The notes beneath the pieces were generated by a model. It ran no database searches, was not told the origin of the DNA, and saw only the letters and a list, made by a program, of their open reading frames with translations. A program made the translations under genes and the position numbers. A stretch of 63,158 nucleotides of DNA, the filler included. It is 4 parts of 4 records of this genome, joined end to end, with 100 filler letters (N's around TTAATTAATTAA, not from the genome) between each part and the next. Parts side by side here need not be neighbours in the genome. Positions count along the whole stretch, not along the records: positions 1 to 20,618 come from DRR378314_1787; 3 more parts are not named here. The stretch is one strand, 5' to 3'. How positions within the stretch are numbered: the first letter of the stretch is position 1; the number at the start of each line of letters is the position of its first letter. Below, piece after piece: positions 1-42,367 of this stretch.

Positions 1-98
1 AAGTTCTCTTTCCGCATGATCATCTCCCGAAAGAACATATATGACAGAATTTCCAATTAAACCGGGACGTGGACAAATGATAAACTTAGCGGTAACTG

Positions 99-113
99 AT
101 TATCATAAATAAT
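99..113. promoter_or_regulatory. Putative LysR-type T-N11-A dyad upstream of the LysR gene
   Basis: ATTATCATAAATAAT (ATTAT-N5-ATAAT) lies just upstream of the LysR start, in an AT-rich region shared with a probable divergent gene (minus-strand ATG at about 17-23 with GGGAGA RBS) that runs off the window. Confidence 0.35.
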
Positions 114-127
114 GAATTGGGGCCGCC

Positions 128-994
128 TTGTCGAATACCGACCACATGCCGCCGCTCAACTGGCTACGCAGCTTCGAGGCCTGCGCCCGGCTCGGATCCT
201 TCACAGCCGCCGCAGTGGAGTTGAATATTACCCAGCCTGCGGTGTCGCATCAGATCCGGCAACTGGAAGCTCATCTGAAACTTGCCCTGTTCCGTAGAGT
301 AGGCCGGACCAAGCAGCTGACAGACGAAGGTCGCAACTATCTGTTCTTCGTGCACGAGGCCTTCGAACTGCTGCGTGCCGGGTCACGGAAAGCAGTTGAT
401 CCTGATCGCGGAAAATCGCTGACGTTGCGTGCAAACATGGCTTTGACGCTCTTCTGGCTTATGCCACGATTGGACAGCTTGTATAGGCAATACCCTTGGA
501 TCCGGCTGAATATCCTGCCCCATATCTCGGACATCGAAGAGCGGGCTCCCAACTTCGAGATAGAGATCGTGAACCTGATCAGCGAAGCCCGAGCAGACCT
601 GAGACCACTGCGGGATGAGTATTTTTTCCCGGTTTGCTCACCCGAATTGGCGCAATCGGGCAGACTTGATCATGTTCCCCTGTTTGACACTTCCAGTATG
701 ACAGCCAGTTGGGATGAGTGGCACGGGTCCAAATACCGCGGCCCCCCGCCCAAGCCGGTGAATTTCGCCTCGACCGTGGTGTTGTCCATGACTGCGGCGA
801 TCAATGGCGTAGGATTGGCATTGGCGCATACCAGTCTGTTCGAGGCCGCCTCAAAGGCTGGGCAACTCGTTCGCCCATATGATAGTCAAATCAAGATGAA
901 GGAGCGTTATTTCATTAGCGAGGTACGCGCCAACGAACAAACTCCGGCCAGCCGTACCTTTATGGAATGGCTGGACGAACAGCTCGATTCCTAA
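128..994 (+). CDS. LysR-family transcriptional regulator (GcvA-like)
   Basis: N-terminal HTH PPLNWLRSFEACARLGSFTAAAVELNITQPAVSHQIRQLE; 288 aa; substrate-binding domain with AAINGVGLAL; TTG start. Confidence 0.93.
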   Translation: MSNTDHMPPLNWLRSFEACARLGSFTAAAVELNITQPAVSHQIRQLEAHLKLALFRRVGRTKQLTDEGRNYLFFVHEAFELLRAGSRKAVDPDRGKSLTLRANMALTLFWLMPRLDSLYRQYPWIRLNILPHISDIEERAPNFEIEIVNLISEARADLRPLRDEYFFPVCSPELAQSGRLDHVPLFDTSSMTASWDEWHGSKYRGPPPKPVNFASTVVLSMTAAINGVGLALAHTSLFEAASKAGQLVRPYDSQIKMKERYFISEVRANEQTPASRTFMEWLDEQLDS

Positions 995-1307
995 TGCGCT
1001 AGTCCGTCTGAAGCCCAACGGTTGTGCGCGCTCTGTGCATGAATCGTGCCCGGTGGACGTGCTCTGAGGCGGCGACCCTGGTTGATCGCCTCTGTTCCCG
1101 AGGTGCGGGCAGGCCTGCGTCAACCCCTTCCAGCCTCGGTGCAATGCCAACCTCCGGCCGCCAAACATTGAGATGGACCAAGTCAGCGGGAGAAATCCAG
1201 CGATCCCCATACATCAAACTGGGTAATGTGTTACTTTGAAATTTATAATTTGTCGAAAGGACTGATTGGCAAGAGATTAGACCCGAAACTTTTTTTGGGG
1301 TCAAACC

Positions 1308-2078
1308 ATGCCAACACACTCTCTTCGATCTGCTGAAACGGGTTCAAACATGGACCACTGGAAAGAACGTACCGAGCTTGCAGCTTCCTTTCGCTGGGTC
1401 GAGCGGCTGAACATGCACGAATCTGTCGGCAACCACCTGAGCCTGGCAGTGAATGAAGATGGCACGCAATTTTTGATGAACCCCAATTTGGTGCATTTCA
1501 GGCTGATCAAGGCTTCAGACCTGATCCTGATTGACGCCAACGACCCTGAAACTCTGAACCGCCCGGATGCACCGGATAAAGCGGCCTGGGGGCTGCACGG
1601 TGCTATCCATCGGCGCTGTCCACATCATCGCTGCCTGATGCATGTGCATTCGATCTATTCCACCGCTTTGGCCTGCCTTGAGGACAGCAGCCTGCCGCCA
1701 TTGGATCAGAACGCTGCCATGTTCTTCAACCGGACGATCATTGATGAACACTATGGTGGCCTAGCCTTCGATGACGAGGCGGAACGCTGCGCTGCGGCGC
1801 TAGGCGATCCGACGAAGAAAGTCATGATCATGGGCAATCATGGGGTGATGGTGATGGGCGATACCGTCGCTGAAACCTTCAACCGTCTTTACTACTTTGA
1901 ACGGGCGGCAGAGACGTACATCCAGGCACTTCAAACTGGTCGTCCCCTACGGATTCTGTCCGATGCCGTTGCCGAAAAAGTGGCGTACGAGAATGACAAC
2001 TACCACGGCTTTGCCGAGCGGCACTTGGAGAACCTGATGACCATTCTTGACAAGGAAGGCGCGGACTACGCGAGCTGA
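1308..2078 (+). CDS. Class II aldolase/adducin-family protein
   Basis: Motifs GNHLS, LHGAIHR, MHVHS (metal-binding His) and MGNHGV. The true start may be the Met at 1350. Confidence 0.9.
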   Translation: MPTHSLRSAETGSNMDHWKERTELAASFRWVERLNMHESVGNHLSLAVNEDGTQFLMNPNLVHFRLIKASDLILIDANDPETLNRPDAPDKAAWGLHGAIHRRCPHHRCLMHVHSIYSTALACLEDSSLPPLDQNAAMFFNRTIIDEHYGGLAFDDEAERCAAALGDPTKKVMIMGNHGVMVMGDTVAETFNRLYYFERAAETYIQALQTGRPLRILSDAVAEKVAYENDNYHGFAERHLENLMTILDKEGADYAS

Positions 2079-2087
2079 GGTGCAACT

Positions 2088-3116
2088 ATGCCTGATTATG
2101 TCCCTACCAATGCCGCGTCGTCGGGCGTGAAGCTGGACAAGAAAACACTCAAATCCATCGCCGCGCGGTCTGACCGGCCCGGGCTGATCTATCTTGCTCT
2201 CTGGCTGGGCTCGCTTTGCATGACAGGGGCGTTGGTCTATCTGACCCTTGGTACATTCTGGATGTGGCCCGCCATGTTTGTGCATGGCATTTTTCTGTGC
2301 GTTCCGACCTATTCCATGAGCCATGAAACCGCTCACGGTACCGCTTTTCGTACGAGATGGCTGAACGAAGCCGTGCTTTGGATGTCGTCCCTGATCTACA
2401 TGGAAGAGCCGCTGCACCGCCGCTATACCCATACCTCGCACCACACGTTTACCTGGTGGGCAGAAAAGGATGCCCAGTTCCCTTTTGATACGCCCATGGG
2501 GCTAAAAGGTTGGATCACAGAGATCACCGGGTTCGGGATACTTCGTTTTCATGTCCATGTTTTCTGGCAACTGGCGACGAAGCAATACACCGACATGATG
2601 CGCAGCTGCACGCCCGAGCCCGAGTTTCCCAGGATGACGCGCAACGCGCGGATTATGCTGGCTATCTATGCGGCCATCGCAGCAGCGCCGTTCTTCGGCA
2701 TCTGGTGGCCGGTTTGGCTGATCGTCGTGCCTCGCATTCTGGGGGCGCCAGTCATGCTGTTGTTCACATTGATCCAGCATGTGGAGTTGCAGGAAAATTC
2801 TCCCTCTATCCTGGAAAGCACTCGGTCGTTTCGCACCAACTGGCTGGCGAAGTTTCTCTACATGAACATGAACAACCACGTTGAGCATCACCTCTATCCC
2901 AATGTGCCGTTTCATGCGCTTCCCGATCTGGCCGAAGCGGTCAAGGATCAGGTGCCAGAACCCGACCCCGGCTTCTTTCGCAGCAACTGGGAGGTTCTGG
3001 TGGTCACAGCCCGCCGTTCGCTTGGCCTTTCGACCAAAGCCCCGTCGATCCGCCAGGCACCGCATATGATTACCGAGGGCGGCCCAATTCAGAAGTTCGC
3101 CGAGAGGAACATGTGA
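2088..3116 (+). CDS. Membrane di-iron oxygenase, fatty-acid-desaturase superfamily (MocD-like)
   Basis: Three His boxes (HETAH, HTSHH, HVEHH) with hydrophobic segments; a Rieske ferredoxin lies two genes downstream, as with mocD-mocE. Confidence 0.85.
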   Translation: MPDYVPTNAASSGVKLDKKTLKSIAARSDRPGLIYLALWLGSLCMTGALVYLTLGTFWMWPAMFVHGIFLCVPTYSMSHETAHGTAFRTRWLNEAVLWMSSLIYMEEPLHRRYTHTSHHTFTWWAEKDAQFPFDTPMGLKGWITEITGFGILRFHVHVFWQLATKQYTDMMRSCTPEPEFPRMTRNARIMLAIYAAIAAAPFFGIWWPVWLIVVPRILGAPVMLLFTLIQHVELQENSPSILESTRSFRTNWLAKFLYMNMNNHVEHHLYPNVPFHALPDLAEAVKDQVPEPDPGFFRSNWEVLVVTARRSLGLSTKAPSIRQAPHMITEGGPIQKFAERNM

Positions 3117-3119
3117 TCC

Positions 3120-3968
3120 ATGAAACGCATTTATGACTTTTCCCGCAAACCCGCAGCGCGCAACTATACCATCTCGGACCTGCAGGCCCTGAAAGGGACT
3201 GACCGCAAGCTGTCCATGGTCAATCCAGCAAACGATGACGAGGTGCGTGCCTGTGTCGAAGCGGGTATCGACCTCTTTGTCGCTGGCATGGACCAAATTG
3301 AGGGTATTCGTGCCATCGCGCCGACCCATTTCACTGGGCTTGGATCAACTTGGGCCCAGTTCGGATCGAACGAGGAAATCCTTGCTGATGCTTTCGAAGC
3401 TATGCGCCGGGGCGGCGACATGTACTACACGCTGCGGTCATTCGATGCGATGGAGATGATGTCGCTTGAGGGTATCCCGGTGCAGAGCCATATCGGGCTG
3501 ATCCCGACTTTCAGCCACTATTGTGGGGGCCTGCGTGGTTGGGGCCGCAAAGCCGGGGAGGCGATGAAGATTTATGAAACGCTGAAGCGGATGGAAGACG
3601 TAGGTGTTATTGCGGTTGAGGCCGAGTGCATTGCTGAAGAAGTGCTGGAAGCCGTTAACACCAAGACATCGATCGTAACCTTCTCGTTGGGGTCGGGCAT
3701 GGCTGGCGATGTAATCATGTCCTTTGTGGCTGATATCTGCGGCGAAGCCAGCGAAGAGGACAAGCCCCCCAAACACGCCCATGCGTTTGGCAATGTCGGG
3801 CGTCTGCATAAACAAATACATGATGAGCGTGTCGCTGCCCTTGGCGCGTTCCACAGCGAAGTGACTGCCGGCAATTTCCCGTATCCACAAACCAACATTT
3901 CAATGCACGAGGGTGAGAAGGATAAGTTCCTTGAAGCCTTGGATAAATGGAGCCCGACACACCAATGA
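3120..3968 (+). CDS. Divergent PanB-like (ketopantoate hydroxymethyltransferase family) protein
   Basis: GIPVQSHIGLIP, EAECI and SLGSG...GD resemble PanB. The canonical N-terminal AYD...VGDS segment is altered or shortened, so it is probably not a true PanB. Confidence 0.75.
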   Translation: MKRIYDFSRKPAARNYTISDLQALKGTDRKLSMVNPANDDEVRACVEAGIDLFVAGMDQIEGIRAIAPTHFTGLGSTWAQFGSNEEILADAFEAMRRGGDMYYTLRSFDAMEMMSLEGIPVQSHIGLIPTFSHYCGGLRGWGRKAGEAMKIYETLKRMEDVGVIAVEAECIAEEVLEAVNTKTSIVTFSLGSGMAGDVIMSFVADICGEASEEDKPPKHAHAFGNVGRLHKQIHDERVAALGAFHSEVTAGNFPYPQTNISMHEGEKDKFLEALDKWSPTHQ

Positions 3969-4276
3969 GTCAATGGATTGACGCCTGCGCGACCTCGGAT
4001 ATCGACGACGAAGACCTGATCGCGTGGGAACATGACGGTCACAGGATCGCGATCTACAACACCGAAAAGGGCTTCTTCGCAACGGACCTGATGTGCACCC
4101 ATGAAGAGGAGTCTATGGAGGAAGGACTTGTCATTGACTGTGTGATCGAATGCCCTCTGCACGGCGGTCGCTTTGACATCTGCACGGGCAAAGCTTTGTC
4201 CGCACCGGTATATGAGGACCTGAAAACCTATCCTGTGAAAGTCGAAAACAACCGGGTTTTCGTTCAGGTGTCATAA
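3965..4276 (+). CDS. Rieske [2Fe-2S] ferredoxin (MocE-like)
   Basis: CTH...CPLH Rieske motif; ATG at 3965 overlaps the upstream TGA (ATGA coupling). Confidence 0.92.
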   Translation: MSQWIDACATSDIDDEDLIAWEHDGHRIAIYNTEKGFFATDLMCTHEEESMEEGLVIDCVIECPLHGGRFDICTGKALSAPVYEDLKTYPVKVENNRVFVQVS

Positions 4277-4335
4277 CCGGCGCAGGTGTATCTGAGGCAC
4301 TCCGCTACCCGGATCTTCCCAAGAAGGATTAACAC

Positions 4336-5529
4336 ATGGGGAATTTTCAAGAAGCATCGGATTTGGAGAGCAATGTCTCCATCAGCGCGCGTCGTTTCGA
4401 AGAGTCGCCGTTTATTGAACGCACTGATTGCCCTGGGATGGTCCGTGGCGTCTATGCAGGGCGGTATTTCCCGATTTCTTTGGGTGAGGATCACATCGAA
4501 AAATACTGGCGCCTGCGGCAGAAGGCCCTGGTCTTTGACACGCCCGAGAAGCCGATTGAAATCTCAGGCCCGGACGCGGTGCCGTTTCTTGACCATGTGC
4601 TGGCGCGTCGTGTCGCCTCCATGACGGAAGGCCGCGGCTACTACGCCATCGCCTGTACTCCGCAGGGCGGTGTGTTCATGGATGGCGTGATATTCCGTTT
4701 GGAAGAAAACCGGTTTTGGTATGTGCAGGCTGATGGCCCCTTTGAAACCTGGTTGATGGCGCATTCTGGCGACTATGATGTGACGATTTCCGACCCGAAC
4801 AGCCGGGTGCTGCAGATCCAGGGGCCGACATCCCTGGAGATCATGAAAGCGGCCTCTGACGGGGCGGTGAATGAGACACTGAAGTATTTCCGCTCGGGCT
4901 ACTTCGACATAGGCGGACAGCAGTTTTACGTCTCCCGCACTGGTTTTACGAATGAGTTGGGATACGAGATTTACTGTAATGGAGCTAAGACTGATCATTT
5001 GGCGCTATGGGATCACCTCATGACCTGTGGGGCACCGCATGGGCTGGAGTTTTCATCCTGCCGGGCCATGACCCTGCGGCGGATCGAAGGCGGGATACTG
5101 GGTAATCTGACAGATATGACACCCGACATGACGCCCTTTGAGGCAGGCCTCGCCCCTTTCATTGACATGGACAAGGGTGATTTTATCGGACGTGACGCGC
5201 TGGTGGGTAAAGACACCCGTTCATGTCTTTTCGGCATAACCTGCGAGACTGAGACCCCTGCATCGGGTGCCGTCGTTCTGAATGGTGGGGTTGCTGTAGG
5301 TTTTGTCACGGCCGGTATTCCTTCGCCGACGCTAGGGCTTGGTGTCGGATATGTGCGTTTTGATGCGCCCGGTGATTGGGTCGGCCGGAGCCTAAAAATG
5401 CGCTTGCCGGATGGCAGCACACACGACACACAGATCGTGGATGTGCCTTTCTTCGACCGAGAAAAGGCAATCGTTCGAGGTGTGGATCGTTCCATTCCTG
5501 AGCGGCCAACAATCGGAACACAGGCATGA
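4336..5529 (+). CDS. THF-dependent aminomethyltransferase/demethylase, GcvT family (DmdA-like)
   Basis: IEISGPDA, QIQGP, VSRTGFTNELGYEIY, RIEGG and FIGRDAL; the N-terminal SARRFEESPF...VYAGRYFP resembles the DmdA N-terminus; AAGGA RBS. Confidence 0.88.
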   Translation: MGNFQEASDLESNVSISARRFEESPFIERTDCPGMVRGVYAGRYFPISLGEDHIEKYWRLRQKALVFDTPEKPIEISGPDAVPFLDHVLARRVASMTEGRGYYAIACTPQGGVFMDGVIFRLEENRFWYVQADGPFETWLMAHSGDYDVTISDPNSRVLQIQGPTSLEIMKAASDGAVNETLKYFRSGYFDIGGQQFYVSRTGFTNELGYEIYCNGAKTDHLALWDHLMTCGAPHGLEFSSCRAMTLRRIEGGILGNLTDMTPDMTPFEAGLAPFIDMDKGDFIGRDALVGKDTRSCLFGITCETETPASGAVVLNGGVAVGFVTAGIPSPTLGLGVGYVRFDAPGDWVGRSLKMRLPDGSTHDTQIVDVPFFDREKAIVRGVDRSIPERPTIGTQA

Positions 5530-6383
5530 CCAACCGAACACCACGCCCACGGCGCAGTTTCATTTTCACGCCGGGATTGCGGCCCGAGATGTTTCCCAAG
5601 GCGCTTGCCAGTGGCGCGGATATTGTTTGCGTCGAGCTGGAAGACGGCATCGCGCCCAAGGACAAAGCCGAAGCACGGCAAAAAGCTCTGGCTCTGTTCG
5701 AACAGCCACAGGCCGATGACGGGGTAGAGCGGATCGTGCGGATCAATTCGATGCGGGAACGGTCTGGGATCGAGGATGTGAATGCGGTGCTGGCCAGCAC
5801 AACGCCGCCCCCGGCACTGATGATGCCCAAGGTGCGCACACCCGATGAGGTGGTGATGCTGGATCAGCTTCTGACCGAGGCGGGCCATGCGACCCGCCTG
5901 CATGTCATCATCGAGACGAATGAGGGGCTGGAGGCGGCGTTCGAAATCGCGAGATGCTCACCTCGGATTGATGCGATGTTCTTTGGCGGCGTGGATATGG
6001 CCGCCGAGCTGCGGTGCCAGAATACGTTCGAGTCGATGATCTATGCGCGGTCCCGCGTGGTTCATGCGTCGGCGGCAGCGGGTTTGGACGTGATTGACGT
6101 ACCGTTCCTCGATCTCGACGATCCGGAGGGGATGCGGATCGAGGCCGAGAAAGTGCGCGACCTGGGATTTGCCGGCAAGGGCTCGGTCCATCCAAAACAG
6201 ATCGCCACGCTCAACGAAGTGTTCACGCCGTCTGCGGACAAGATCGCCCGGGCGCGCCGGATCATCGCTGAATTCGAGGCGGCGGATACGGGGCTGGTCG
6301 TTATCGATGGCAAACTCATTGAAAAACCGGTCCTGCGCGACATGTATCGCATCGTTGCCATTGCAGATCGGATGGGAGGATAA
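5526..6383 (+). CDS. HpcH/HpaI aldolase - citrate lyase beta (CitE/malyl-CoA lyase) family protein
   Basis: RRSFIFTPG, GADIVCVELEDG, VRIN, MMPKV, IIET, GFAGKGSVHPKQI and DGKLIE; ATGA overlap with the upstream gene. Confidence 0.92.
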   Translation: MTNRTPRPRRSFIFTPGLRPEMFPKALASGADIVCVELEDGIAPKDKAEARQKALALFEQPQADDGVERIVRINSMRERSGIEDVNAVLASTTPPPALMMPKVRTPDEVVMLDQLLTEAGHATRLHVIIETNEGLEAAFEIARCSPRIDAMFFGGVDMAAELRCQNTFESMIYARSRVVHASAAAGLDVIDVPFLDLDDPEGMRIEAEKVRDLGFAGKGSVHPKQIATLNEVFTPSADKIARARRIIAEFEAADTGLVVIDGKLIEKPVLRDMYRIVAIADRMGG

Positions 6384-6384
6384 A

Positions 6385-7737
6385 ATGTCAGACTGTTGTG
6401 GGCCGGGATACGCATCACCCCAGGCCGCGATCGAGGCGCCGCGAGAGAAGCTGCTTTACACAATCGCGATCTACACAGGTACGGGCATTCAGAAGCCCGA
6501 CTACCTGGCGACCGTGGATGTTGATCCTGACAGCCCGACTTACAGCCAGGTCATTCACCGACTCGAAATGCCGGGGATCGGGGATGAGCTGCATCATATG
6601 GGCTGGAATGCATGTTCGTCGTGTTTTGACGATGGCAGCATGTCCCGCAAATACCTGATCCTGCCGGGGGTGCGCTCGAACAACCTGCATATCGTCGACA
6701 CCGCCACCGACCCGCGCGCGCCGCGGCTGCACAAGGTGATCGACGGCGCCGAGATCAAGGCCAAGGCCAATCTCAGCGGTCCGCACACGGTGCATTGCCT
6801 GGGCAGTGAAATTATCATCTCGTTTCTGGGCGACGCCAAGGGAGAAGCCCCGGGCGGCTACCTGCATCTGAACAAGGATTTCGAGATTGTTGGCCGTTGG
6901 GAAAACTCAATGGGCGACATCAAGTTCGGCTATGACTTCTGGTACCAGCCGCGCCACAACGTGATGGTCAGTTCCGAATGGGCCGCCCCCAACACCTTCA
7001 TGCCGGGCTTCGATCTGGAGGAGGTTGGCCATCTCAAATACGGCCGTGAACTGCATTTTTGGGATTTCGAAAAGCGTGAGCCGATTGAAAGCTTCTATCT
7101 GGGCGAGGACGGGCTCATTCCGCTAGAGGTCAAGTTCCATCACAACCCCGACAGCACCCACGGGTTCTGCGGCGCGGCCCTTTCCACAAATGTCATTCAC
7201 TGGTGGAAGGACGATGCCGGCAAATGGCAGTGGGAAAAGATCATCGACGTCGAGAACGAGATGCACCCCGAATGGCCGATCCCGCTGCCCGGTGTGATGT
7301 CGGCGCTGCTGGTCTCGATGGATGACCGGTACCTCTACGTGAACAACTGGCTGCACGGCGACATGCGCCAGTACGACATCACCGACCCGCATAACCCGGT
7401 GCTGACGGGGCAGGTCTTCATGGGCGGGCTTCTGGGCAAGGCGCCGGTGGTGAACGGGATCGAGATGGCCGGCGGGCCGCAGATGTTCCAACTGAGCCTT
7501 GACGGGCGCAGGCTCTATGTGACGACCTCGCTCTTCTCCACCTGGGACAACCAGTTCTATCCGGAGATCCGCGAGAAAGGCGGGGTGCTGGTGATGATTG
7601 ATTGCGACCCGGAAAACGGCGGGATGAAGATCAACGAGGATTTTATCGTCAATTTCGGCCAGGAACCGGGCGGCCCTGCGCGGTGTCACGAAATGCGCTA
7701 TCCGGGCGGTGATTGCACAAGCGATATCTGGCTATGA
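6385..7737 (+). CDS. Selenium-binding protein SBP56/SELENBP1-like, putative cytoplasmic methanethiol oxidase
   Basis: Start re-called at ATG 6385 (MSDCCGPGYASP). Motifs DYLATVDVDP, DELHHMGWNACSSC, YDFWYQPRHNVMVSSEWAAP, GGPQMFQLSLDG and HEMRYPGGDCTSDIWL closely match animal SELENBP1. No signal peptide. Confidence 0.93.
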   Translation: MSDCCGPGYASPQAAIEAPREKLLYTIAIYTGTGIQKPDYLATVDVDPDSPTYSQVIHRLEMPGIGDELHHMGWNACSSCFDDGSMSRKYLILPGVRSNNLHIVDTATDPRAPRLHKVIDGAEIKAKANLSGPHTVHCLGSEIIISFLGDAKGEAPGGYLHLNKDFEIVGRWENSMGDIKFGYDFWYQPRHNVMVSSEWAAPNTFMPGFDLEEVGHLKYGRELHFWDFEKREPIESFYLGEDGLIPLEVKFHHNPDSTHGFCGAALSTNVIHWWKDDAGKWQWEKIIDVENEMHPEWPIPLPGVMSALLVSMDDRYLYVNNWLHGDMRQYDITDPHNPVLTGQVFMGGLLGKAPVVNGIEMAGGPQMFQLSLDGRRLYVTTSLFSTWDNQFYPEIREKGGVLVMIDCDPENGGMKINEDFIVNFGQEPGGPARCHEMRYPGGDCTSDIWL

Positions 7738-8099
7738 CCACCCATACGGTCACAATCGCTAACCGCGGTGGCGCAACCTACGAGGTTGATCCGCGCCGCC
7801 CGCTGCTGGATGCCCTGCGCGACCAGGGGGTCGATTTGCCTTATGGCTGCAAATACGGCGGCTGCATCACCTGCGCGGCCAAACTGACCGAAGGCACAGT
7901 GGACCAACGCCGCCAGGTCGCGCTCAATAACCGGCAAATCGCGAACGGGTATGTGATCCTCTGCGTAGCCCGCGCGACGTCCGATATCACGCTTGAAATC
8001 GGGGTCGAGAGCCACGGGCAACTTTATCGCAACCCGTTCCTCGACCCGCTCGAACCCCATGAACTCAAGGCGGATATCGCCACGCCGAAGGAGACGTAA
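7734..8099 (+). CDS. Plant-type [2Fe-2S] ferredoxin
   Basis: LPYGCKYGGCITC...VILC motif; ATG 7734 overlaps the SBP56 stop. Confidence 0.9.
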   Translation: MTTHTVTIANRGGATYEVDPRRPLLDALRDQGVDLPYGCKYGGCITCAAKLTEGTVDQRRQVALNNRQIANGYVILCVARATSDITLEIGVESHGQLYRNPFLDPLEPHELKADIATPKET

Positions 8100-8564
8100 A
8101 TGCCCGAAGCCGATATTGACCGCATCTACGACTACGACCCGAAATACCTGGCTGATATCCTGAAATCGGTCAAAACCATCGCCATGGTGGGCGCCAGCGC
8201 CGACAAGACGAAGTTCAGCTATGGCGTACTGCGACAGCTTAGCGAAATCGGCTATGACATCCTGCCTGTCAATCCCAACCCGGCTGTCACCGAAATCCGG
8301 GGTCTGAAAGTGTATCACTCGCTGGAAGAGATCGACAAACCGGTCGACATGGTCGATGTTTTCCGCCCCAAGGAAGAGTTCTATGGGTTGGCCGAGAAGG
8401 CCATCGCCATCGGGGCCAAGGTCCTCTGGGGTCAGATCGGCGTCTATGATGACAAAGCGGCTAAACTTGCCGAAGAGGCCGGGCTCAAGGTCGTGATGAA
8501 CCGCTGCCCAAAGATCGAGCTCTTCCGCCCCTTCTGGAAGCCCCGGCTTGATCTGAAGATATGA
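8100..8564 (+). CDS. CoA-binding protein (YccU-like)
   Basis: KTIAMVGAS, PVNP, VDMVDVFR, LWGQIG and VMNRCPKIE. Confidence 0.9.
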   Translation: MPEADIDRIYDYDPKYLADILKSVKTIAMVGASADKTKFSYGVLRQLSEIGYDILPVNPNPAVTEIRGLKVYHSLEEIDKPVDMVDVFRPKEEFYGLAEKAIAIGAKVLWGQIGVYDDKAAKLAEEAGLKVVMNRCPKIELFRPFWKPRLDLKI

Positions 8565-8674
8565 CCGAACGCCCGCTGCACGGCTGCTGTTGTGCCGGGG
8601 CAATGGCGATCGACTGGCCACTGGAGATGTTATTCGGAACGGTGCGCCGGTTACTGAAACGAGAGGATGAGACA

Positions 8675-9070
8675 ATGGGGCAAACCATTAAAACAAGCGC
8701 AAAAGACATCGTTAAGGCTGCAATGGCTGCCGTTCCTGCGATCAGCGTCGAAGAGGCGCTGCCACTGGTGACCAGCGGGATCCATGTCTTCGTCGACCTG
8801 CGCGACGGAACCGAACAGGCGACGACGGGTGTGATCCCCGGCGCCGTCGCTTCGTCCCGCGGCATGATGGAATTTCACATCGACCCGGAAAGCCCCGCCC
8901 ACAAGCCGGAATTCAACCAGGACAAGACCTATGTCTTCTACTGCGCTTCTGGCGGCCGCTCGGCGATGGCGGCACAGGTCGCGATGGATATGGGGCTCTC
9001 TCCGGTCGTCAACCTCACCGGTGGCATCGGCGCCTGGACAAAGGCCGGCGGTCCGCTGGACCAGGGCTGA
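8675..9070 (+). CDS. Single-domain rhodanese/sulfurtransferase
   Basis: VDLRD, GVIPGA, active-site loop YCASGGRS and LTGGIGAW; start re-called at ATG 8675 after a GAGAGGA RBS. Confidence 0.9.
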   Translation: MGQTIKTSAKDIVKAAMAAVPAISVEEALPLVTSGIHVFVDLRDGTEQATTGVIPGAVASSRGMMEFHIDPESPAHKPEFNQDKTYVFYCASGGRSAMAAQVAMDMGLSPVVNLTGGIGAWTKAGGPLDQG

Positions 9071-9094
9071 GCACGCAGGGCAAGGAGAGATCAG

Positions 9095-9979
9095 ATGGCC
9101 GAATACCCTGTCGACATGACAGTCACCCCCGAGGTCGAAGGCTTCTTCGACGAGGCCAGCAACACGATCTCTTATATTGTGAAGGACCCGGGGTCAGACG
9201 CCTGCGCGATCATCGACAGCGTGTTGGACATCGACTATGCCGCCGGGCGCATCTCTTATGACAGCGCAGACCGGCTGATCGACGCCATAACCAAGCGCGG
9301 CTTGCGCGTCGAGTGGATCATCGAAACCCATGTGCATGCCGATCACCTGTCTGCCGCACCCTATCTCCAGGAAAAGCTGGGTGGAAAGATCGGCGTGGGT
9401 ACCCGGATCATGGAAGTGCAGGAGGTCTTCGGCAAAGTGTTCAACGAGGGCACGGAATTCCAACGCGATGGCTCGCAATTCGATGCTCTGTTCGAGGACG
9501 GTCAGACCTACCAGATCGGCACGATGCAGGCCTTCGCCCTGGCTACGCCGGGGCATACGCCCGCCTGCATGGTACATGTAGTCGGCGATGCGGCTTTTGC
9601 GGGCGATACGCTCTTCATGCCCGATGGCGGCTCGGCCCGAGCCGATTTCCCGGGCGGTGATGCGGGCGAATTGTATGACAGCATCCAAAAAGTGTTGTCA
9701 CTTCCGGACGAGATGCGGCTCTTTATCTGTCACGATTACGGCCCCGGTGGCCGTGCCATCGCCTGGGAAACGACAATTGGTGAGCAACGGCAAAACAACA
9801 TCCATGTGGGCGACGGCAAAACCCGCGAAGACTTCATCAGGTTCCGCACCGAACGCGATGCTGAACTCGCCATGCCAAAGCTCATCATTCCGTCTTTGCA
9901 GGTGAATATGCGCGCCGGCGAAATTCCGCGGGACGAGGACGGCAATCCGATGCTCAAAGTGCCGCTGAGCGGATTGTAA
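9095..9979 (+). CDS. MBL-fold persulfide (sulfur) dioxygenase, ETHE1/Blh-like
   Basis: ETHVHADH, TPGHTPAC, GDTLFMPD.G.AR.DFPGG, CHDY and PSLQVNMRAG. Confidence 0.9.
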   Translation: MAEYPVDMTVTPEVEGFFDEASNTISYIVKDPGSDACAIIDSVLDIDYAAGRISYDSADRLIDAITKRGLRVEWIIETHVHADHLSAAPYLQEKLGGKIGVGTRIMEVQEVFGKVFNEGTEFQRDGSQFDALFEDGQTYQIGTMQAFALATPGHTPACMVHVVGDAAFAGDTLFMPDGGSARADFPGGDAGELYDSIQKVLSLPDEMRLFICHDYGPGGRAIAWETTIGEQRQNNIHVGDGKTREDFIRFRTERDAELAMPKLIIPSLQVNMRAGEIPRDEDGNPMLKVPLSGL

Positions 9980-9982
9980 CGC

Positions 9983-11368
9983 ATGACTATGACAAATACG
10001 AAGAATGCTTCGGCAATAGAAGCTCTGCGCAACCTGCTTGGTAATCGCCTGTCGACCGGGAGTTCGGTACTTGAACTTCACAGCCGCGATGAGGCCTACA
10101 CTCCTCCAGCATATCCAGAAGCGGTTGCTTTTCCTGAAACCACTGAACAAGTTTCTCAAATCCTTAGAATTTGTTCCGAACATGCATGCCCGGTAGTACC
10201 CTTTGGAGTTGGCACTTCACTCGAAGGCCATGTGATACCCATTCAAGGTGGCATCAGCGTTGATGTCAGCAGAATGAACCGTATCCTAGAAGTTCGGGAG
10301 AAAGATCTGCTTGCTGTCGTCCAGCCGGGTGTTACGCGGACGCAACTAAATGAAGAGTTGCGGGCAACTGGCCTTATGTTCACCGTTGATCCTGGTGCTG
10401 ACGCAACAATTGGCGGCATGGCGGCCACCCGTGCATCTGGTACCAATTCCGTTCGATATGGCACAATGCGAGAAAACGTGATGGCGCTCGAAGTGGTTTT
10501 GCCGAACGGGAACATCATCAAGACAGGAAGCCGTGCCCGAAAATCCGCGAGTGGTTATGATCTGACCCATCTCTTTGTCGGTTCGGAAGGCACGCTTGGC
10601 ATCATTACAAATCTCACTGTCCGATTATTTGGGCAACCAGAAACCATATTATCTGCTGCCTGCGCGTTTGAAACGCTTGAGGGAGCGGTCGATGCTGTCA
10701 TTCTGGCTATTCAATCGGGTATTCCATTCGCTCGGGTAGAATTGCTCGATGAGATGCAAATCAAGGGCATGAACATTCTTGATTCGGAAATTGGATTGCC
10801 CGAGAAACCGCATCTCTTTCTCGAATTCCATGGATCACAGGTTTCCACCGCAGAGCAAGTTGAAACATTCCAAGGTATCGTCGGCGATTTCGGGGGGAAG
10901 GAATTCAAATGGGCAAGCAAGACCGAAGACCGCAAAAAGCTTTGGAAAGCCCGGCACCAGGCGCTGTATGCTGCCAAAGCTCTGAGGCCTGGTTGCGTTG
11001 GAATGGTTACGGATTGTTGTATACCGATATCCAGCATGGCGGAGTGCATTTCCCGCACCAAAATTGAGATTGTCCGATCGGGACTCATCGCACCAATTGT
11101 TGGTCACGTCGGTGACGGGAACTTTCACCTAGTGATCCTTTGCGACCCAGAAAGTGAGCGAGAACTAGAGCAGGCATATGGGCTGGCCGAAACCGTCAGT
11201 CATTTGGCATTGGAAATGGGCGGGACCGTTAGCGGCGAACATGGTATCGGCATTGGAAAGAAGAAATACATGATCAAGGAACATGGTGCGGCATTTGAAC
11301 TGATGAAAGCTCTCAAACACATGGTCGATCCGTATGACATTATGAATCCCGGTAAGTTGATCAGTTGA
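9983..11368 (+). CDS. FAD-linked oxidase, D-lactate/2-hydroxyacid dehydrogenase (GlcD/DLD family)
   Basis: PFGVGTSLEGH, DPGADATIGGM, GYDLTHLFVGSEGTLG, GHVGDGNFH, GEHGIG and MNPGK; visibly more AT-rich than the upstream genes. Confidence 0.92.
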   Translation: MTMTNTKNASAIEALRNLLGNRLSTGSSVLELHSRDEAYTPPAYPEAVAFPETTEQVSQILRICSEHACPVVPFGVGTSLEGHVIPIQGGISVDVSRMNRILEVREKDLLAVVQPGVTRTQLNEELRATGLMFTVDPGADATIGGMAATRASGTNSVRYGTMRENVMALEVVLPNGNIIKTGSRARKSASGYDLTHLFVGSEGTLGIITNLTVRLFGQPETILSAACAFETLEGAVDAVILAIQSGIPFARVELLDEMQIKGMNILDSEIGLPEKPHLFLEFHGSQVSTAEQVETFQGIVGDFGGKEFKWASKTEDRKKLWKARHQALYAAKALRPGCVGMVTDCCIPISSMAECISRTKIEIVRSGLIAPIVGHVGDGNFHLVILCDPESERELEQAYGLAETVSHLALEMGGTVSGEHGIGIGKKKYMIKEHGAAFELMKALKHMVDPYDIMNPGKLIS

Positions 11369-11438
11369 TTCACATTCTCTGCTATTGATGTCGAAGCACT
11401 GTGTGCGTGAGGGTTAAGTCTCATACCCAAAACATGAC

Positions 11439-11628
11439 GACTGCAACGAAGCGCAATTCGTGTTCAAAACCTCCAAGCGCACGGCACGCATCACGCTTAA
11501 GCAACTCACCACGGCAGGTTTCCTCGTTTCGGCTTCGCCCAAGAGGCCCGTTCGCCTTGCCTTCCCGCTGGACTACCGGTAGCACCTGTTCCCCAATCTC
11601 GTTGCGAATGCAGAGCCGCCGGGGTGAA
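11439..11628 (+). pseudogene. Remnant of a Fic-family protein C-terminus
   Basis: My translation gives EAQFVFKTSKRTARITLKQLTTAGFLVSASPKRPVRLAFPLDYR*HLFPNL, resembling the C-terminal HTH and 'PVRLxFP...LFP' tail of proteobacterial Fic proteins; internal TAG stop and no 5' part. Confidence 0.5.
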
Positions 11629-12525
11629 CCGGATCGCCCGTGAATTGTTCACGCTGACCAGCAGCGCCGCGGATGAGCACCGGATACTCGCTCGGGGAAC
11701 GGGTGCCGACGGGTATGTACGCGCGAGCGACTATTACTATGTCTATCGCTCCAGAGCGGATTTCGAGAAAGAAGCCTTCGCCTGGGACATCCGGCGGAAG
11801 AACGGCATCGTCTTCGATGAAGTCGGCGAGCCTGAATTGCGCAGGCTGGAACCGGACCTTTCGAGTGCATTCTGCTTCGCTATCCGGTTGCCCGATCACG
11901 GATTCTCGATCGACCCTGGCCAGCTGGTAAAGGGACTGACAGCGCGTTTCCGGAAAAATGGCGGGCGGTTCCTCAGGGCGAAGGTCCGGTCGATCGAGAC
12001 CCTTGGCAATGTCGCCGCGGCCTTGATCACCGCTCCGGGCGCGTGGCGTATGACAGGGCGGTAATCGCGGCGGGGGCTTGGTCGCTAGACCTGCTCGCGC
12101 CGCTCGGCGTGCAGATCCCGCTGATCGGCGAACGCGGGTATCATATTGAGTTCCGCGACACCGGCATTCGCCACAATTTCCCGATGATGGTCACGTCGGG
12201 AAAATATGTCGCGACGCCGATGCGGGGCCGCCTGCGTCTCGCCGGGATAGTCGAGTTTCGGGCAATGTCGGATGCTCCGAACCCGAAGCTGTGAAAACGA
12301 TTGAGGCGGCATGCGGGAATCCTGTTTCCCGCAGCCGATCTCGCCAAGATGGAAACCTAGATGGGGCACCGACCGTCTTTGCCGGACAGCCTGCCAGTGA
12401 TCGGTGCGGTGCCGGGCTTTCCAAACGTCATTCTCGCCTTCGGTCGTCAGCATATCGGTCTGACCACAGGCCCCAAGACCGGCCGGCTGGTCGCGCAGCT
12501 TGCCGGCGGCGTCCCGGATATCTGA
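11624..12525 (+). pseudogene. Disrupted FAD-dependent D-amino acid dehydrogenase (DadA/DAO family)
   Basis: Pieces in different frames (AVIAAGAWS, ERGYH, LRLAGIVEF, *MGHRPSLPDSLPVIG...AFGRQHIGLTTGPKTG). The N-terminal GxGxxG is missing; there are frameshifts and a TAG in place of the conserved Trp. Confidence 0.85.
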
Positions 12526-12532
12526 ATCGATT

Positions 12533-12680
12533 GACCGAGTTGCACGAATAGCGGTTAGGCCGCAACTGCCCCTTTCTCCGTTCGATATGCGACAGTTTAA
12601 TGGTCGCACACCCGAGATAGTTCGTGCGGTTGAGAGCGTTGAACACGATCTTGGATTCGGCTATCTGGATCTCCAATTCG
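12533..12680 (-). mobile_element. IS5-family (IS903-like) right-end remnant
   Basis: Minus-strand EIQIAESKIVFNALNRTNYLG resembles the transposase C-terminus and is followed by AAAGGGGCAGTTGCGGCC...TCGTGCAACTCGGTC, an IR-like end. Confidence 0.55.
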
Positions 12681-12962
12681 CGGCTACATAGCACAAACCC
12701 GATTGAGCGCCTCTACAACGAAGTGAAACGCCGGGCCGATGTTGCGGATATCTTCCCAAACGAGGCCTCAATCATCCGCATCATCGGCGCGGTGCTCTTC
12801 GAGCAGATCGACGAATGGCAGACCATCAGCAGATACATGCAAGTTAAGGCCTTCAAACAGATCGATCAGGAGGAGGCAGACCCCCATTCTCAGCATCTCA
12901 ACTCAAGCCGCCCGACCATGACACCAGGCCATCCAATTTACACCATATTGGAGGACGTGGTC
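12678..12962 (+). mobile_element. IS256-family transposase 3' remnant with right end
   Basis: LHSTNPIERLYNEVKRRADVADIFPNEASIIRIIGAVLFEQIDEW is a typical IS256 C-terminus; terminal sequence AATTTACACCATATTGGAGGACGTGGTC. Confidence 0.85.
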
Positions 12963-13031
12963 GTTCAGGCCGGGCATATCTCGAACCCATTTTGGTAATT
13001 TCGAATGGGCTAATGGCCAAGAAGTTGCATT

Positions 13032-15449: not shown

Positions 15450-15458
15450 GGGATACTG

Positions 15459-17870: not shown

Positions 17871-17917
17871 GGGGGTGCCTTTATTGACTGCTGCAACTAC
17901 ATTCATATAATTTTTAT

Positions 17918-18838
17918 ATGGATGATTTGCGTACTTTGCTCCCGATCATGAATGCCCTTGCTGCATTTGAAGCTGTCGCCAGCGTTCAGAGCGTCAGTGA
18001 AGCATCCAGGCGATTAAACATCTCCCAACCGTCATTGAGTCGGCACATTAAGGTACTGGAAGAAAATCTGAACACGCAATTATTTGATAGAGTCCATAGC
18101 AAAATTCGATTGACTACCGAAGGTGAACAGCTGTTCGACGCGGTGCAGGGCGGCCTGTCAGGCATCCGGCAGGTCTGCGCTGACCTGAAATCGCGGGCAG
18201 AGTTTCCCTCGGTATCGATCCATTGCGGCTATGGGCTGGCGCATTTCTGGTTTCTTAAGATTTACCCCGACCTGCAACAGGCTTTTCCGGATTTCGACAT
18301 CAAGCTCTCGGTGTCACAGACCGAAACCAGCGCCGACCATCTAGATGCGGACTTGTCCTTTGTTCTGGGCAAGCCGTCGAACCCGGATTACCGGTCAGAC
18401 CAGATCATTCAGGAACAGATCGTTCTAGCCTGTTCGCCGAGTTTTTTACAGCAGCACGGAGTGCAGGCCGATCAGTTGACGCCCGAGACGATCCGCCAAT
18501 TGCCCCTGCTGCATCAGGCGCGCGAGGAGTATGGCTGTATCTGGTTCGGAGACTGGTTTCGCGCCCATGGTGTGGATTTCGAATTGACCCCCGAGGTGCT
18601 GTTTTACCACAGCTACCCGCTGCTGATCGAAGCCGCCACCGAAGGCCGCGGCATCTGCATAGCATGGCCGCAACTGTCGGGTGATCTCTTTGCCACCGGG
18701 CTGTTAACCTCTTTGCCAGGTACCGAGATGGAATCCGAGAACGGCTATTTTCTGGTCTCGCGGGCGAAACAACATGCAACCGAGAGAATTTCCGCACTGC
18801 ACAACCTTGTTTTAGAGAAGGCACGAGCAATGTTTTAA
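17918..18838 (+). CDS. LysR-family transcriptional regulator, divergent from the dehydrogenase pair
   Basis: ALAAFEAVASVQSVSEASRRLNISQPSLSRHIKVLE HTH; only 47 bp separate the divergent starts. Confidence 0.92.
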   Translation: MDDLRTLLPIMNALAAFEAVASVQSVSEASRRLNISQPSLSRHIKVLEENLNTQLFDRVHSKIRLTTEGEQLFDAVQGGLSGIRQVCADLKSRAEFPSVSIHCGYGLAHFWFLKIYPDLQQAFPDFDIKLSVSQTETSADHLDADLSFVLGKPSNPDYRSDQIIQEQIVLACSPSFLQQHGVQADQLTPETIRQLPLLHQAREEYGCIWFGDWFRAHGVDFELTPEVLFYHSYPLLIEAATEGRGICIAWPQLSGDLFATGLLTSLPGTEMESENGYFLVSRAKQHATERISALHNLVLEKARAMF

Positions 18839-19896: not shown

Positions 19897-20618
19897 ATGA
19901 CCCCCCCTGCCCCCTATCTGCCCGGTCCCTCTCCTGCCCTTTCTGTCGAAGATCAGGAGGCGCTCACCGACCTCTATGTGCGCGGCACGCCAGCCAATAC
20001 GCTCAGGGCTTATGAGCGTGACCTGCTCTTCGTGACGGCATGGAAAATGGCACGCTTCGGTTCGGAGCTGGACTGGCCCGAAACGGAGGCCTCAGCGCTG
20101 GCCTTCATCCTCGATCACGCCCGCGATCTCAGCGACGCGCCCGCCGAAGACGTAGCCCGTCAAACGGCAGAGATGCTCATTGCACAAGGGCTGCGCAAAT
20201 CCCTCGCCTGCCCGGCGCCGTCCACGCTGGACCGGCGCATCGCCTCCTGGCTGGCGTTTCATCGGATGAAAAACCTCGCCAGCCCCTTTGGCACGCCGCA
20301 GGTGAAACAGGCCCGCGCCAAAGCGCGCCGGGCGGCAGCCCGCCCCCCTGCCCCAAAGTCGCAGCATCCGATTACCCGCGATATTCTGGAGCAGTTGCTG
20401 GCCACCTGCCGTGGTTCCCGCCGCGATTGCCGCGACCGTGCGATCCTGATGCTGGGCTGGGCCTCGGGAGGCCGACGCCGGTCCGAGATCACCGGGTTGA
20501 GACGCGAAGATGTCTCGCTGAAGGAATTCGAAGAGAAGGGCCGGGTTTGGATCTCGCTGCTGGAAACTAAGACCACCCAGAAGGGCGACACGCCACGGCT
20601 GGTCCTCAAGGGTCGCGC
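19897..20618 (+). CDS. Tyrosine recombinase/site-specific integrase (alphaproteobacterial plasmid type), truncated by the contig end
   Basis: ANTLRAYERD, PSTLDRRIASW, RDRAILMLGWASGGRRRSE (catalytic Arg) and ETKT; runs into the N linker. Confidence 0.9.
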
Positions 20619-20718
20619 NNNNNNNNNNNNNNNNNNNNNNNNNNNNNNNNNNNNNNNNNNNNTTAATTAATTAANNNNNNNNNNNNNNNNNNNNNNNNNN
20701 NNNNNNNNNNNNNNNNNN
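20619..20718. other. Artificial contig-joining linker
   Basis: N44-TTAATTAATTAA-N44 (stops in all six frames); identical structure at all three junctions. Confidence 0.98.
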
Positions 20719-40835: not shown

Positions 40836-40838
40836 GTC

Positions 40839-41324: not shown

Positions 41325-41343
41325 TGTTGCTGGAGGGCGAGTC

Positions 41344-42360: not shown

Positions 42361-42367
42361 GGTTTCT

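Follow-up and report, generated by a model that had tools for sequence, protein, structure and literature searches.

Can a compact run of genes be taken to encode one pathway? The question is raised by positions 128-11368 of the stretch of DNA analysed here (the window: 63,158 nucleotides in four parts from four records of one marine bacterial genome, with positions 1 to 20,618 coming from record DRR378314_1787), where 12 co-oriented genes stand behind a LysR gene. An initial annotation, made from the sequence alone, had read all 12 as a single catabolic operon for a methylated organosulfur compound, leading from demethylation through methanethiol to the oxidation of its sulfur. The explanation that we favor, with slightly better than even confidence, is a recent fusion of four separately inherited cassettes, namely A (1308-4276), B (4336-6383), C (6385-9979) and D (9983-11368), in which B and C together form a methyl-sulfur cassette and A is independent. 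To judge from spacing, the array is almost certainly read as a single transcript. The back half very likely demethylates a sulfur osmolyte and oxidizes the methanethiol that results. The front half is, as far as its genes can tell, an autonomous LysR-controlled oxygenase operon, to which the sequence assigns no substrate.

The physical layout is as first described. The products of all 13 genes (Table 1) score above the Pfam gathering cut-offs, and the successive gaps from the LysR gene to the GlcD-like gene are 313, 9, 3, -4, 59, -4, 1, -4, 0, -4, 24 and 3 bp, which leaves a range of -4 to 59 bp within the 12. The ATGA couplings reported at 3965, 5526 and 7734 are joined by a fourth at 8561, and the largest gap, of 59 bp, coincides with an evolutionary seam. 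The gene families named at the outset were also recovered, while a PanB-like protein, a plant-type ferredoxin and a CoA-binding protein had gone unnamed. The SBP56 gene starts at ATG 6385, one base past the stop codon of the CitE-like gene and preceded by GGAGG, and not at the first TTG of the open reading frame (6094). Terminator-like sites were at shuffle background (10 found, 11.2 expected), all of them inside genes and none in the intergenic gaps, and a promoter scan that included 995-1307 revealed no strong sigma-70-like site above shuffle background. An NCBIfam equivalog cut-off is passed by the aldolase only (PRK07490, 394.8 vs 260). In NCBIfam the LysR protein comes closest to GcvA and the choline-sulfate regulator, without reaching either cut-off; its relatives are co-oriented at 84-87% identity in the loci L159-L162 and L182, and divergent at 38-71% elsewhere.

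Table 1. Features of the array and its 3' edge (window positions)
Feature	Module	Positions	Strand	Basis or remark
LysR-family regulator		128-994	+	Pfam HTH_1 and LysR_substrate; co-oriented with array
Intergenic region, 313 bp		995-1307	.	Sole array gap long enough for a promoter/operator
Class II aldolase/adducin-fold protein (aldolase or decarboxylase)	A	1308-2078	+	Pfam Aldolase_II, 145.5 bits
Membrane di-iron hydroxylase/desaturase-family protein (MocD-like)	A	2088-3116	+	Pfam FA_desaturase, 106.6 bits
PanB-like TIM-barrel protein	A	3120-3968	+	Pfam Pantoate_transf, residues 108-254
Small Rieske [2Fe-2S] ferredoxin (MocE-like)	A	3965-4276	+	Pfam Rieske; ATGA-coupled to PanB-like gene
Module A/B seam, 59 bp		4277-4335	.	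Rearrangement hot spot in close relatives
Stand-alone GcvT-family folate-dependent methyltransferase, DmdA-sister clade	B	4336-5529	+	Pfam GCV_T, 149.2 bits; GCV_T_C, 34.5 bits
CitE-like (RipC/malyl-CoA-lyase-like) acyl-CoA lyase	B/C	5526-6383	+	Pfam HpcH_HpaI, 141.9 bits; ATGA-coupled to GcvT gene
Cytoplasmic copper methanethiol oxidase (SBP56, cluster 1, RdMTO/SELENBP1 type)	C	6385-7737	+	Pfam SBP56, 682.6 bits
Plant-type [2Fe-2S] ferredoxin, predicted private partner of oxidase	C	7734-8099	+	Pfam Fer2
Small CoA_binding_2 protein	C	8100-8564	+	Pfam CoA_binding_2, 127.6 bits
Single-domain rhodanese (sulfurtransferase)	C	8561-9070	+	Pfam Rhodanese; active-site loop CASGGR128
Persulfide dioxygenase (metallo-beta-lactamase fold)	C	9095-9979	+	Pfam Lactamase_B; HVHADH79
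GlcD-like FAD-linked D-2-hydroxyacid or glycolate oxidase/dehydrogenase	D	9983-11368	+	Pfam FAD_binding_4 and FAD-oxidase_C
Rearrangement scars at array 3' edge		11624-12998	+	DAO-oxidoreductase fragment and Mutator-family transposase fragment

History of the array

Evidence that the array exists in nature comes from other samples. Near-identical words of 1308-11300 occur in 19 DNA runs from 8 studies (one of which may be the source sample), and contigs of four runs from four studies (X2, X3, X7 and X9) were aligned to the array. One X3 contig (record 11) spans 3195-6707 with 8 differing letters and bridges the Rieske/GcvT, GcvT/CitE and CitE/SBP56 junctions. The X2 records bridge the first of these (3598-4539) and the other two (5319-7674), and X9 record 28 (3872-4560) bridges Rieske/GcvT again. 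The dioxygenase/GlcD junction is crossed by X3 record 15 (9319-13200) and by X7 record 23 (9506-11489). Because these seams are bridged by contigs from other studies, the array is not an assembly artefact. The same contigs reveal some variation: those of X7 and X9 carry 38 other letters between 8086 and 8089, at the junction of the ferredoxin and CoA-binding-protein genes, as a population variant, and one X2 contig departs from the window after 5521 into unlike sequence, so that a variant exists with something other than the CitE-like gene behind the GcvT gene.

The neighborhoods of relatives show how loosely the parts are held together. A metagenome scan with the PanB-like protein returned 61 loci, 26 of which show another module-A gene. 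Only one further contig, the 7-kb locus L159 of a close relative, shows the full fusion, with a co-oriented LysR gene (84% identity of the product) followed by aldolase (95%), hydroxylase (95%), PanB-like (94%), Rieske (97%), GcvT (94%), CitE-like (94%) and SBP56 (94%) genes before the contig ends. In L163 and L216, module A is followed by the GcvT and CitE-like genes and then by a TRAP transporter on the opposite strand or by a primase/D5 gene, without the oxidase. In L161 other genes follow module A, and in L164 and L214 insertion sequences (IS; rve-type or IS110) do so, while the distant module-A loci L169-L179, L187 and L211 lack modules B and C. The DNA behind the Rieske gene in relatives of 93-95% identity therefore consists of IS elements, unrelated genes, or GcvT-CitE without the oxidase. 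At the seam itself, likeness to other loci of the GcvT clade sets in no earlier than the ribosome-binding site and start codon, and no remnant of the reductase gene usual for that clade is visible in the 59 bp.

The composition of the array changes in steps, with third-position GC contents (GC3) of 0.63-0.70 in module A, 0.61 in the GcvT gene, 0.71-0.78 from the CitE-like to the dioxygenase gene and an atypical 0.49 in the GlcD-like gene, against 0.61-0.78 for the others. At the 3' edge, the DAO fragment (11624-12064) covers profile positions 58-205 only, and the Transposase_mut match (12624-12998) the last 48 profile positions only. The varied cargo behind the Rieske gene in close relatives, the stepwise shifts in composition and the transposase scar together argue for recent assembly. 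Judged by its sequence, the array is a young, lineage-specific mosaic that is kept in a population, rather than one conserved operon, and co-occurrence of 1308-4276 with the sulfur genes is largely absent outside this close kinship. Tight operon-like packing here does not imply an evolutionarily coherent pathway.

The methanethiol oxidase module

The SBP56 protein carries the motifs GWNACS73, HTVHC134 and GGDCT441, and its residues H70, H71, H134, H137, D184, E248, C77, C138 and C444 do not vary across an alignment of 29 sequences. These three motifs define "cluster 1" of the Rhodobacteraceae methanethiol oxidases in Cao et al. 2024 (PMC10936201), and the copper ligands proposed for RdMTO and SELENBP1 (PMC13603461) are among the invariant residues. 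Two assayed members of the cluster, RdMTO and RlMTO, oxidize methanethiol in vitro (PMC10936201, PMC13603461). The window protein is by these marks a cluster-1 methanethiol oxidase of the SELENBP1/SBP56 type that the initial annotation had proposed, a leaderless protein of about 450 residues with the same motifs and proposed copper ligands, and its activity would, by analogy, be that of RdMTO, RlMTO and SELENBP1. It shares family and substrate class with the periplasmic MtoX of Hyphomicrobium VS and Ruegeria pomeroyi (SPOA0268-0272), a system that in the latter is induced by dimethylsulfoniopropionate (DMSP), methylmercaptopropionate and methanethiol and whose mtoX layout includes IclR, SCO1/SenC and MauG (PMC5739008). 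It differs from MtoX in its score against that model (154.5 vs 650 bits), in its N-terminus (MSDCCGPGY, with no signal peptide) and in the absence of SCO1/SenC, MauG or IclR neighbors.

The oxidase has constant company. From at least 600 matched genome stretches, the best 80, with oxidases 87-96% identical to that of the window, were scored with the 13 window proteins; according to their record titles they span Rhodobacterales, SAR116/Puniceispirillales, Rhizobiaceae, Hyphomicrobiales, Geminicoccaceae and Granulosicoccaceae. A ferredoxin gene lies behind the oxidase gene in 80/80 loci, and a CoA-binding-protein gene behind the ferredoxin in 79, the 80th (L045) being a contig that ends inside the ferredoxin gene. 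The invariant unit is thus oxidase, ferredoxin and CoA-binding protein. The remaining back-half genes are found more sparsely: the CitE-like gene upstream of the oxidase in 13/80, rhodanese directly downstream of the trio in 16 (anywhere in the locus in 21), the dioxygenase in three (L001, L002, L029), and GlcD-like relatives of 52-53% downstream of the trio in three (L030, L032, L044). GcvT relatives of at least 70% occur at three loci (L020, L028, L030), and other GcvT-family genes, of 25-40%, at 23. No aldolase-II, FA_desaturase, Rieske or PanB-like gene was found at any of the 80, the PanB of L001 being a true PanB with 27% identity.

Published assays of cluster-1 enzymes used the oxidase alone, whereas the window oxidase is locked to its two small partners. 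The words "operon" and "ferredoxin" are absent from the texts of PMC10936201 and PMC13603461, and no description of the trio was found in the literature searched, some of it represented by titles and abstract openings. A transcript table for NAC11-7 does list CoA-binding and selenium-binding genes two gene numbers apart whose expression shifts together (PMC10203303). The Fer2 ferredoxin belongs to the oxidase and not to the MocD/E-like pair. Its C39, C44, C47, C77 and C-terminal tail are invariant, and a model of the oxidase-ferredoxin complex scored 0.88 (runs of 0.88, 0.90 and 0.87; best of three controls 0.00), with contacts agreeing to at least 97% and a partner pLDDT of at least 91; the mark used is reached by 51 of 78 solved complexes and by 2 of 108 mismatched pairs. 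In the model, the cluster loops and tail of the ferredoxin lie on oxidase residues 65-68, 97-99, 131, 202-218, 296-301 and 385-396, next to the copper ligands H70/H71. This supports, but does not prove, binding of the ferredoxin to the oxidase.

The last two genes of module C resemble the persulfide pairs of Blh, CstB and ETHE1, in which a HxHxDH dioxygenase of metallo-beta-lactamase fold stands beside a rhodanese with an active-site cysteine loop. Residues 8-292 of the dioxygenase align to Blh 138-421 (369.2 bits) and place it among the persulfide dioxygenases; the two-domain cut-off of 625 is missed because the rhodanese is a separate gene. Unlike those detoxification pairs, the window has two genes and no fusion, and they are coupled to a methanethiol oxidase and not to a sulfide:quinone oxidoreductase.

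The closest genome locus, L001, carries a bona fide DmdA (477.5 bits against the DmdA model) in the exact slot of the window GcvT, followed by CitE-like lyase, oxidase, ferredoxin, CoA-binding protein, rhodanese and dioxygenase genes and then by a BisC-family reductase and an IS. Identities to the window are 97% for the CitE-like protein, 96% for the oxidase, 98% for the ferredoxin and 99% for the CoA-binding protein, as against 34% for the methyltransferase. Behind the module, L002 encodes a DmdA-like protein (378.7 bits) together with an enoyl-CoA hydratase and an acyl-CoA ligase. The L001 oxidase copy (10001-11350) contains two in-frame TGA codons, which replace Cys77 of the CSSC motif and Trp273; a second copy in that genome (L005) matches over residues 4-450. 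Selenocysteine was considered for these codons and set aside since one of them replaces Trp, a broken gene or a (long-read) sequencing error being likelier.

The methyltransferase cassette and the front half

The GcvT-family protein was at first called DmdA-type. The family and a place in the sister clade of DmdA stand, but the protein is not DmdA: it scores 156.8 bits against the DmdA model NF009133, with a cut-off of 410. Its best NCBIfam match is the C-terminal domain of Tdm (192 bits, cut-off 1100), and it belongs to the GcvT/aminomethyltransferase folate-binding superfamily, with GcvT, Tdm and Pelagibacter DmdA (3tfh) as solved relatives. A DmdA-like protein of R. pomeroyi that is inactive on DMSP is mentioned in a 2026 paper (PMC12992908).

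Relatives of 58-77% identity were found in 11 of 401 family genomes; 11 regions were retrieved and nine of them Pfam-scanned (all except L150 and L152). As a rule the genes run in the order divergent BetI-type TetR regulator, OpuAC binding protein, ABC ATPase, fused permease (about 700 residues), BisC-family reductase, GcvT, iron-dependent alcohol dehydrogenase (Fe-ADH), 184-residue protein, aldehyde dehydrogenase (ALDH) and CitE-like protein. The reductase, a molybdenum S/N-oxide reductase by family (about 911-951 bits vs a subfamily cut-off of 1017.55), was confirmed in L020, L148, L149, L153, L156 and L157, and as a C-terminal fragment at a contig end in L151. Importer and reductase together accompany the methyltransferase in all of these but L157, which lacks the importer, and L151; L028 has the importer without the reductase, plus a GFA-family gene. 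In the SAR116 locus L030, BetI and a BetA-like choline dehydrogenase (726 vs subfamily 605 bits) replace the ADH and ALDH, and the locus ends with GlcD-like and GFA-family genes. The nearest published analogue of this cassette, whose methyltransferase is 58-78% identical to the window GcvT, is TmoXWV-Tdm. The protein of about 184-187 residues between Fe-ADH and ALDH is conserved and has no Pfam or NCBIfam match (L149:10399-10953; L028:6637-7200); it is a candidate for a missing pathway step. Importer and reductase genes are absent from window positions 1-13200. The window keeps only GcvT and the CitE-like lyase, often the last gene of the cassette, with module A on one side of the pair and the oxidase module on the other.

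Two observations connect this clade with methanethiol oxidation. Relatives of 70-78% stand beside CitE-like and oxidase genes in L020, L028, L030 and L148, and at the level of whole genomes the oxidase (E <= 1e-150; 51 of the 401) is present in 9/11 genomes with the GcvT clade vs 42/390 others (one-sided Fisher p = 2e-7, kinship ignored). The two exceptions have a 70% copy split by stops (G021) and a 43% SBP56 only (G035). Together with the cluster-1 oxidase, the rhodanese, the dioxygenase and the DmdA in the corresponding slot of L001, this sustains the methyl-sulfur reading of the initial annotation for 4336-9979, though not for module A. The CitE-like gene adjoins the GcvT clade in 5/11 regions (once on the opposite strand). 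By score the lyase belongs to its superfamily only (255.9/375 for RipC, 166.8/443.4 for CitE and 61.1/500 bits for malyl-CoA lyase), and among solved structures it is closest to 3qll and to the malyl-CoA lyases 5ugr and 4l9y. The GlcD-like protein reaches 347.6 of the 567.9 bits required by the GlcD model.

The order of a GcvT-family, folate-dependent demethylase ahead of methanethiol disposal is also that of dmdA-dmdB-dmdC-dmdD. The back half may be pictured as follows, in a scheme where the class of substrate, the source of the methanethiol and the roles of the CitE-like, GlcD-like and CoA-binding proteins are our inference. The methyltransferase would pass a methyl group to folate from an onium compound other than DMSP, probably a sulfonium, and the resulting methylthio acid would yield methanethiol. 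The copper oxidase, with its own [2Fe-2S] ferredoxin and the CoA-binding protein, would convert methanethiol to formaldehyde and sulfide or sulfane sulfur, which rhodanese and persulfide dioxygenase would turn into sulfite or thiosulfate. A small carbon skeleton at the glyoxylate/2-hydroxyacid level may be left to the CitE-like lyase and GlcD-like oxidase.

The front half suggests a scheme of "hydroxylate, then cleave", in which the membrane di-iron hydroxylase and Rieske ferredoxin would be followed by two lyase- or decarboxylase-type enzymes. The hydroxylase falls within the FA_desaturase family, with His boxes HETAH79, HRRYTH110 and HVEHH264 and hydrophobic regions at about 31-72 and 187-230; a protein-atlas look-up returned only generic "fatty acid desaturase" clusters. 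The comparison to rhizopine MocD/MocE(/MocF), with its role in O-demethylation, holds for the pairing of an FA-desaturase-fold di-iron protein with a small Rieske ferredoxin. It fails in other respects: the Rieske protein (ligands C44-x-H46 and C63-x-x-H66 present) falls below the cut-off of the MocE family TIGR02377 (111 vs 136.15 bits), there is no MocF-type reductase or inositol gene, and the partners are a class II aldolase, whose closest solved relatives include the decarboxylase NovR as well as TqaM, and the PanB-like protein. The latter is not PanB (TIGR00222, 58.9 vs 207.55 bits, C-terminal half only), and PanB structures match it at E 4e-11 and weaker. Its relatives of 74-79% also occur in sugar-acid-type clusters with short-chain dehydrogenase (SDR), enolase-superfamily, amidohydrolase_2 and FAA-hydrolase genes (L218, L202; L200), so that its reaction is probably a generic one on oxo-acids; we would suggest a 4-hydroxy-2-oxoacid-type cleavage. 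A folate-dependent handling of hydroxymethyl groups was also considered and is weakened by these same relatives. BPD_transp_2 permease genes lie nearby in L218 and L202, and TctC/TctB genes in L218; the assignment of L200 is from the layout of its open reading frames, which is as in L218 and L202, and not from a Pfam scan.

A survey of the 401 family genomes with the FA_desaturase-family protein as query yielded 10 regions, from full-length matches of at least 67% in eight genomes plus a 105-residue contig-end fragment and one 53% relative. The complete set of aldolase-II, hydroxylase, PanB-like and Rieske genes with a divergent LysR (38-44%) is present in L120, L122 and L124; the aldolase is missing from L123 and the PanB-like gene from L121, three of the genes occur in L119, and in L126 a GbcA-like oxygenase and an FA_hydroxylase are inserted. 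None of the 10 has a CitE, SBP56, Fer2, CoA-binding, rhodanese, dioxygenase or GlcD match, and the flanks vary. The sole back-half-type gene is one distant GcvT, a DmdA-like protein (355.1 bits) encoded directly behind the Rieske gene in L120 and, 100% identical and from one organism, in L188. Module A and the oxidase share a genome at background frequency (2/8 vs 49/393, p = 0.27), and the hydroxylase and the GcvT clade do so only in G021, on different contigs. Other lineages have gained M24 proteins, whose best NCBIfam match is DddP (331 vs 600 bits), in L127 and, inside the module, in L173/L174; the two are 51% identical to each other. L127 also encodes a thiamine pyrophosphate (TPP) enzyme of the 5-guanidino-2-oxopentanoate decarboxylase subfamily (581 vs 500 bits). 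Since different onium-processing genes have been gained in different lineages, module A probably also acts on a methylated zwitterion; the gains point to methylated or guanidino zwitterions and not specifically to sulfur. Literature on MocD/MocE and on the reduction and demethylation of dimethylsulfoxonium propionate (DMSOP) contained nothing bearing on module A or on the onium cassette.

Weighing the alternatives

Several points weigh against the recent-fusion account and its methyl-sulfur back half. Co-transcription is judged from gene spacing, and the tight packing together with a fusion that persists in several samples could mean that A and B/C serve one pathway. The window lacks the importer, molybdenum reductase and ADH/ALDH usual for the GcvT clade, it has no homologue of DmdB, DmdC or DmdD, and no array enzyme is known to free methanethiol from a methylthio acid. 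The clade mostly lives away from the oxidase, whose trio adjoins it in 1/11 regions (L148). Its genome-level association with the oxidase, in which kinship was left out of account, is not universal, as a class-wide sample contained the clade in 2/391 genomes (64% and 50% identity, both of about 1.4 Mb) and the oxidase in neither. The L001 locus, with its in-frame TGA codons, may be decaying. Finally, the BetI, BADH-like and choline-dehydrogenase-like neighbors fit an N-methyl substrate equally well. The same can be said of DNA right behind the array, where two adjacent DAO-FAO_M-GcvT fusion genes resembling dimethylglycine or sarcosine dehydrogenases lie on the minus strand at 13032-17906 beside a divergent LysR gene (17918-18838); by sequence, 13032-18838 would be an N-methyl catabolic locus.

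The single pathway of the initial annotation survives best among the alternatives, and we regard it as unlikely. In this scheme all 12 genes would degrade one methylated organosulfur compound: GcvT would demethylate a sulfonium, the MocD/E-like enzyme would hydroxylate the carbon next to sulfur to give a hemithioacetal that would break down to methanethiol plus an aldehyde or oxo-acid, the aldolase-II, PanB-like, CitE-like and GlcD-like enzymes would dismantle the skeleton, and the oxidase, rhodanese and dioxygenase would dispose of the methanethiol. The compact layout behind one LysR gene speaks for it, as do the persistence of the fusion in L159 (84-97%) and in contigs of at least three other studies, the independent joining of module A to a second, non-orthologous DmdA-like GcvT (L120, L188) and to DddP-like M24 proteins in two lineages, and the fact that bacteria free methanethiol from dimethylsulfonioacetate (DMSA) and gonyol along a route with no known genes (PMC7221440). 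The neighborhoods speak the other way. The front-half genes are missing from all 80 oxidase loci and the back-half genes, apart from that one distant GcvT, from all 10 module-A genome loci; the two halves share genomes no more often than background; close relatives carry other cargo behind the Rieske gene; the PanB-like relatives in sugar-acid-type clusters suggest a generic role; and the M24 and TPP-enzyme neighbors point equally to guanidino or N-methyl compounds.

A more specific version, in which the array is an entire LysR-controlled pathway for an algal sulfonium other than DMSP, such as DMSA, gonyol, dimethylsulfonio-2-hydroxybutyrate (DMSHB) or a sulfocholine-type compound, seems to us improbable. 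Here the DmdA-sister protein would move one methyl group to tetrahydrofolate (THF), the MocD/E-like hydroxylase would free methanethiol oxygenolytically via the hemithioacetal, the lyases and GlcD-like oxidase would channel the skeleton into units of the glyoxylate or pyruvate level, and the three-part, ferredoxin-coupled oxidase would pass sulfane sulfur to CoA for the dioxygenase. It would involve a flux between the two halves.

Equally improbable is an accidental, IS-mediated juxtaposition of an oxygenase operon (A), a DMSP-linked methanethiol cassette (B and C) and a stray oxidase gene (D), with transcription reading through and no metabolic link. GcvT would then act on an N-methyl betaine, or would trap formaldehyde made by the oxidase on THF in the manner of the C-terminal domain of trimethylamine N-oxide (TMAO) demethylase. 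Mobile-element genes or scars at the seams in relatives and window, the steps in GC3, the match of GcvT to Tdm, the GFA-family formaldehyde-activating genes beside the oxidase in L028 and L030, the BetI, BetA-like and BADH-like neighbors and the dimethylglycine-dehydrogenase-like genes behind the array are all in keeping with it. However, the GcvT clade has no adjacent oxidase in 10/11 loci and once (L158, 58%) lies directly behind a methylenetetrahydrofolate reductase (MTHFR) gene, an adjacency typical of methyl-THF-forming demethylases, which favors a methyl-THF-forming transferase over a formaldehyde trap. The same slot is taken in L001 by a true DmdA, the genome-level co-occurrence with the oxidase is strong, and it is improbable that GcvT-family genes came to lie behind module A twice independently (in the window lineage and in L120/L188) by chance, on a rough estimate that allows for about 15-25 first-look candidates per genome and is no formal test.

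Elsewhere in the window, 39447-47709 contains genes for a Rieske oxygenase alpha subunit, a Fer2-FAD-NAD reductase, an enolase-superfamily protein, a catechol-type intradiol dioxygenase and TRAP DctP/DctM, and resembles an oxygenase cluster of the aromatic or betaine type. The runs of open reading frames without Pfam families at 19897-31888 and 47868-62712, the latter with a dynamin-family protein (47868-48734) and a 1528-residue leucine-rich-repeat protein (54197-58783), may represent foreign DNA islands.

A large part of the organic sulfur in the sea is carried by methanethiol and DMSP-type sulfonium compounds. The bacterial release of methanethiol from DMSA and from gonyol has been ascribed to an "unrecognized demethylation/demethiolation pathway" by Gebser et al. 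2020 (PMC7221440), and a 2026 review (PMC13360808) names no genes for such routes in the passages searched, the word "gonyol" being absent from its text. The gene set of the array was likewise not found described as a unit in the main texts of the literature searched, as the initial annotation had supposed. The confidently modeled oxidase-ferredoxin interface suggests that published assays, which conflict on H2O2 and on H2S vs sulfane sulfur, left out natural partners of the enzyme. The window also couples an orphan DmdA-sister methyltransferase physically to a cytoplasmic methanethiol oxidase module. This coupling, taken with the genome-level co-occurrence, is the best clue so far for a sulfur-based substrate of the importer/molybdenum-reductase/methyltransferase cassette, and it yields a short list of genes.

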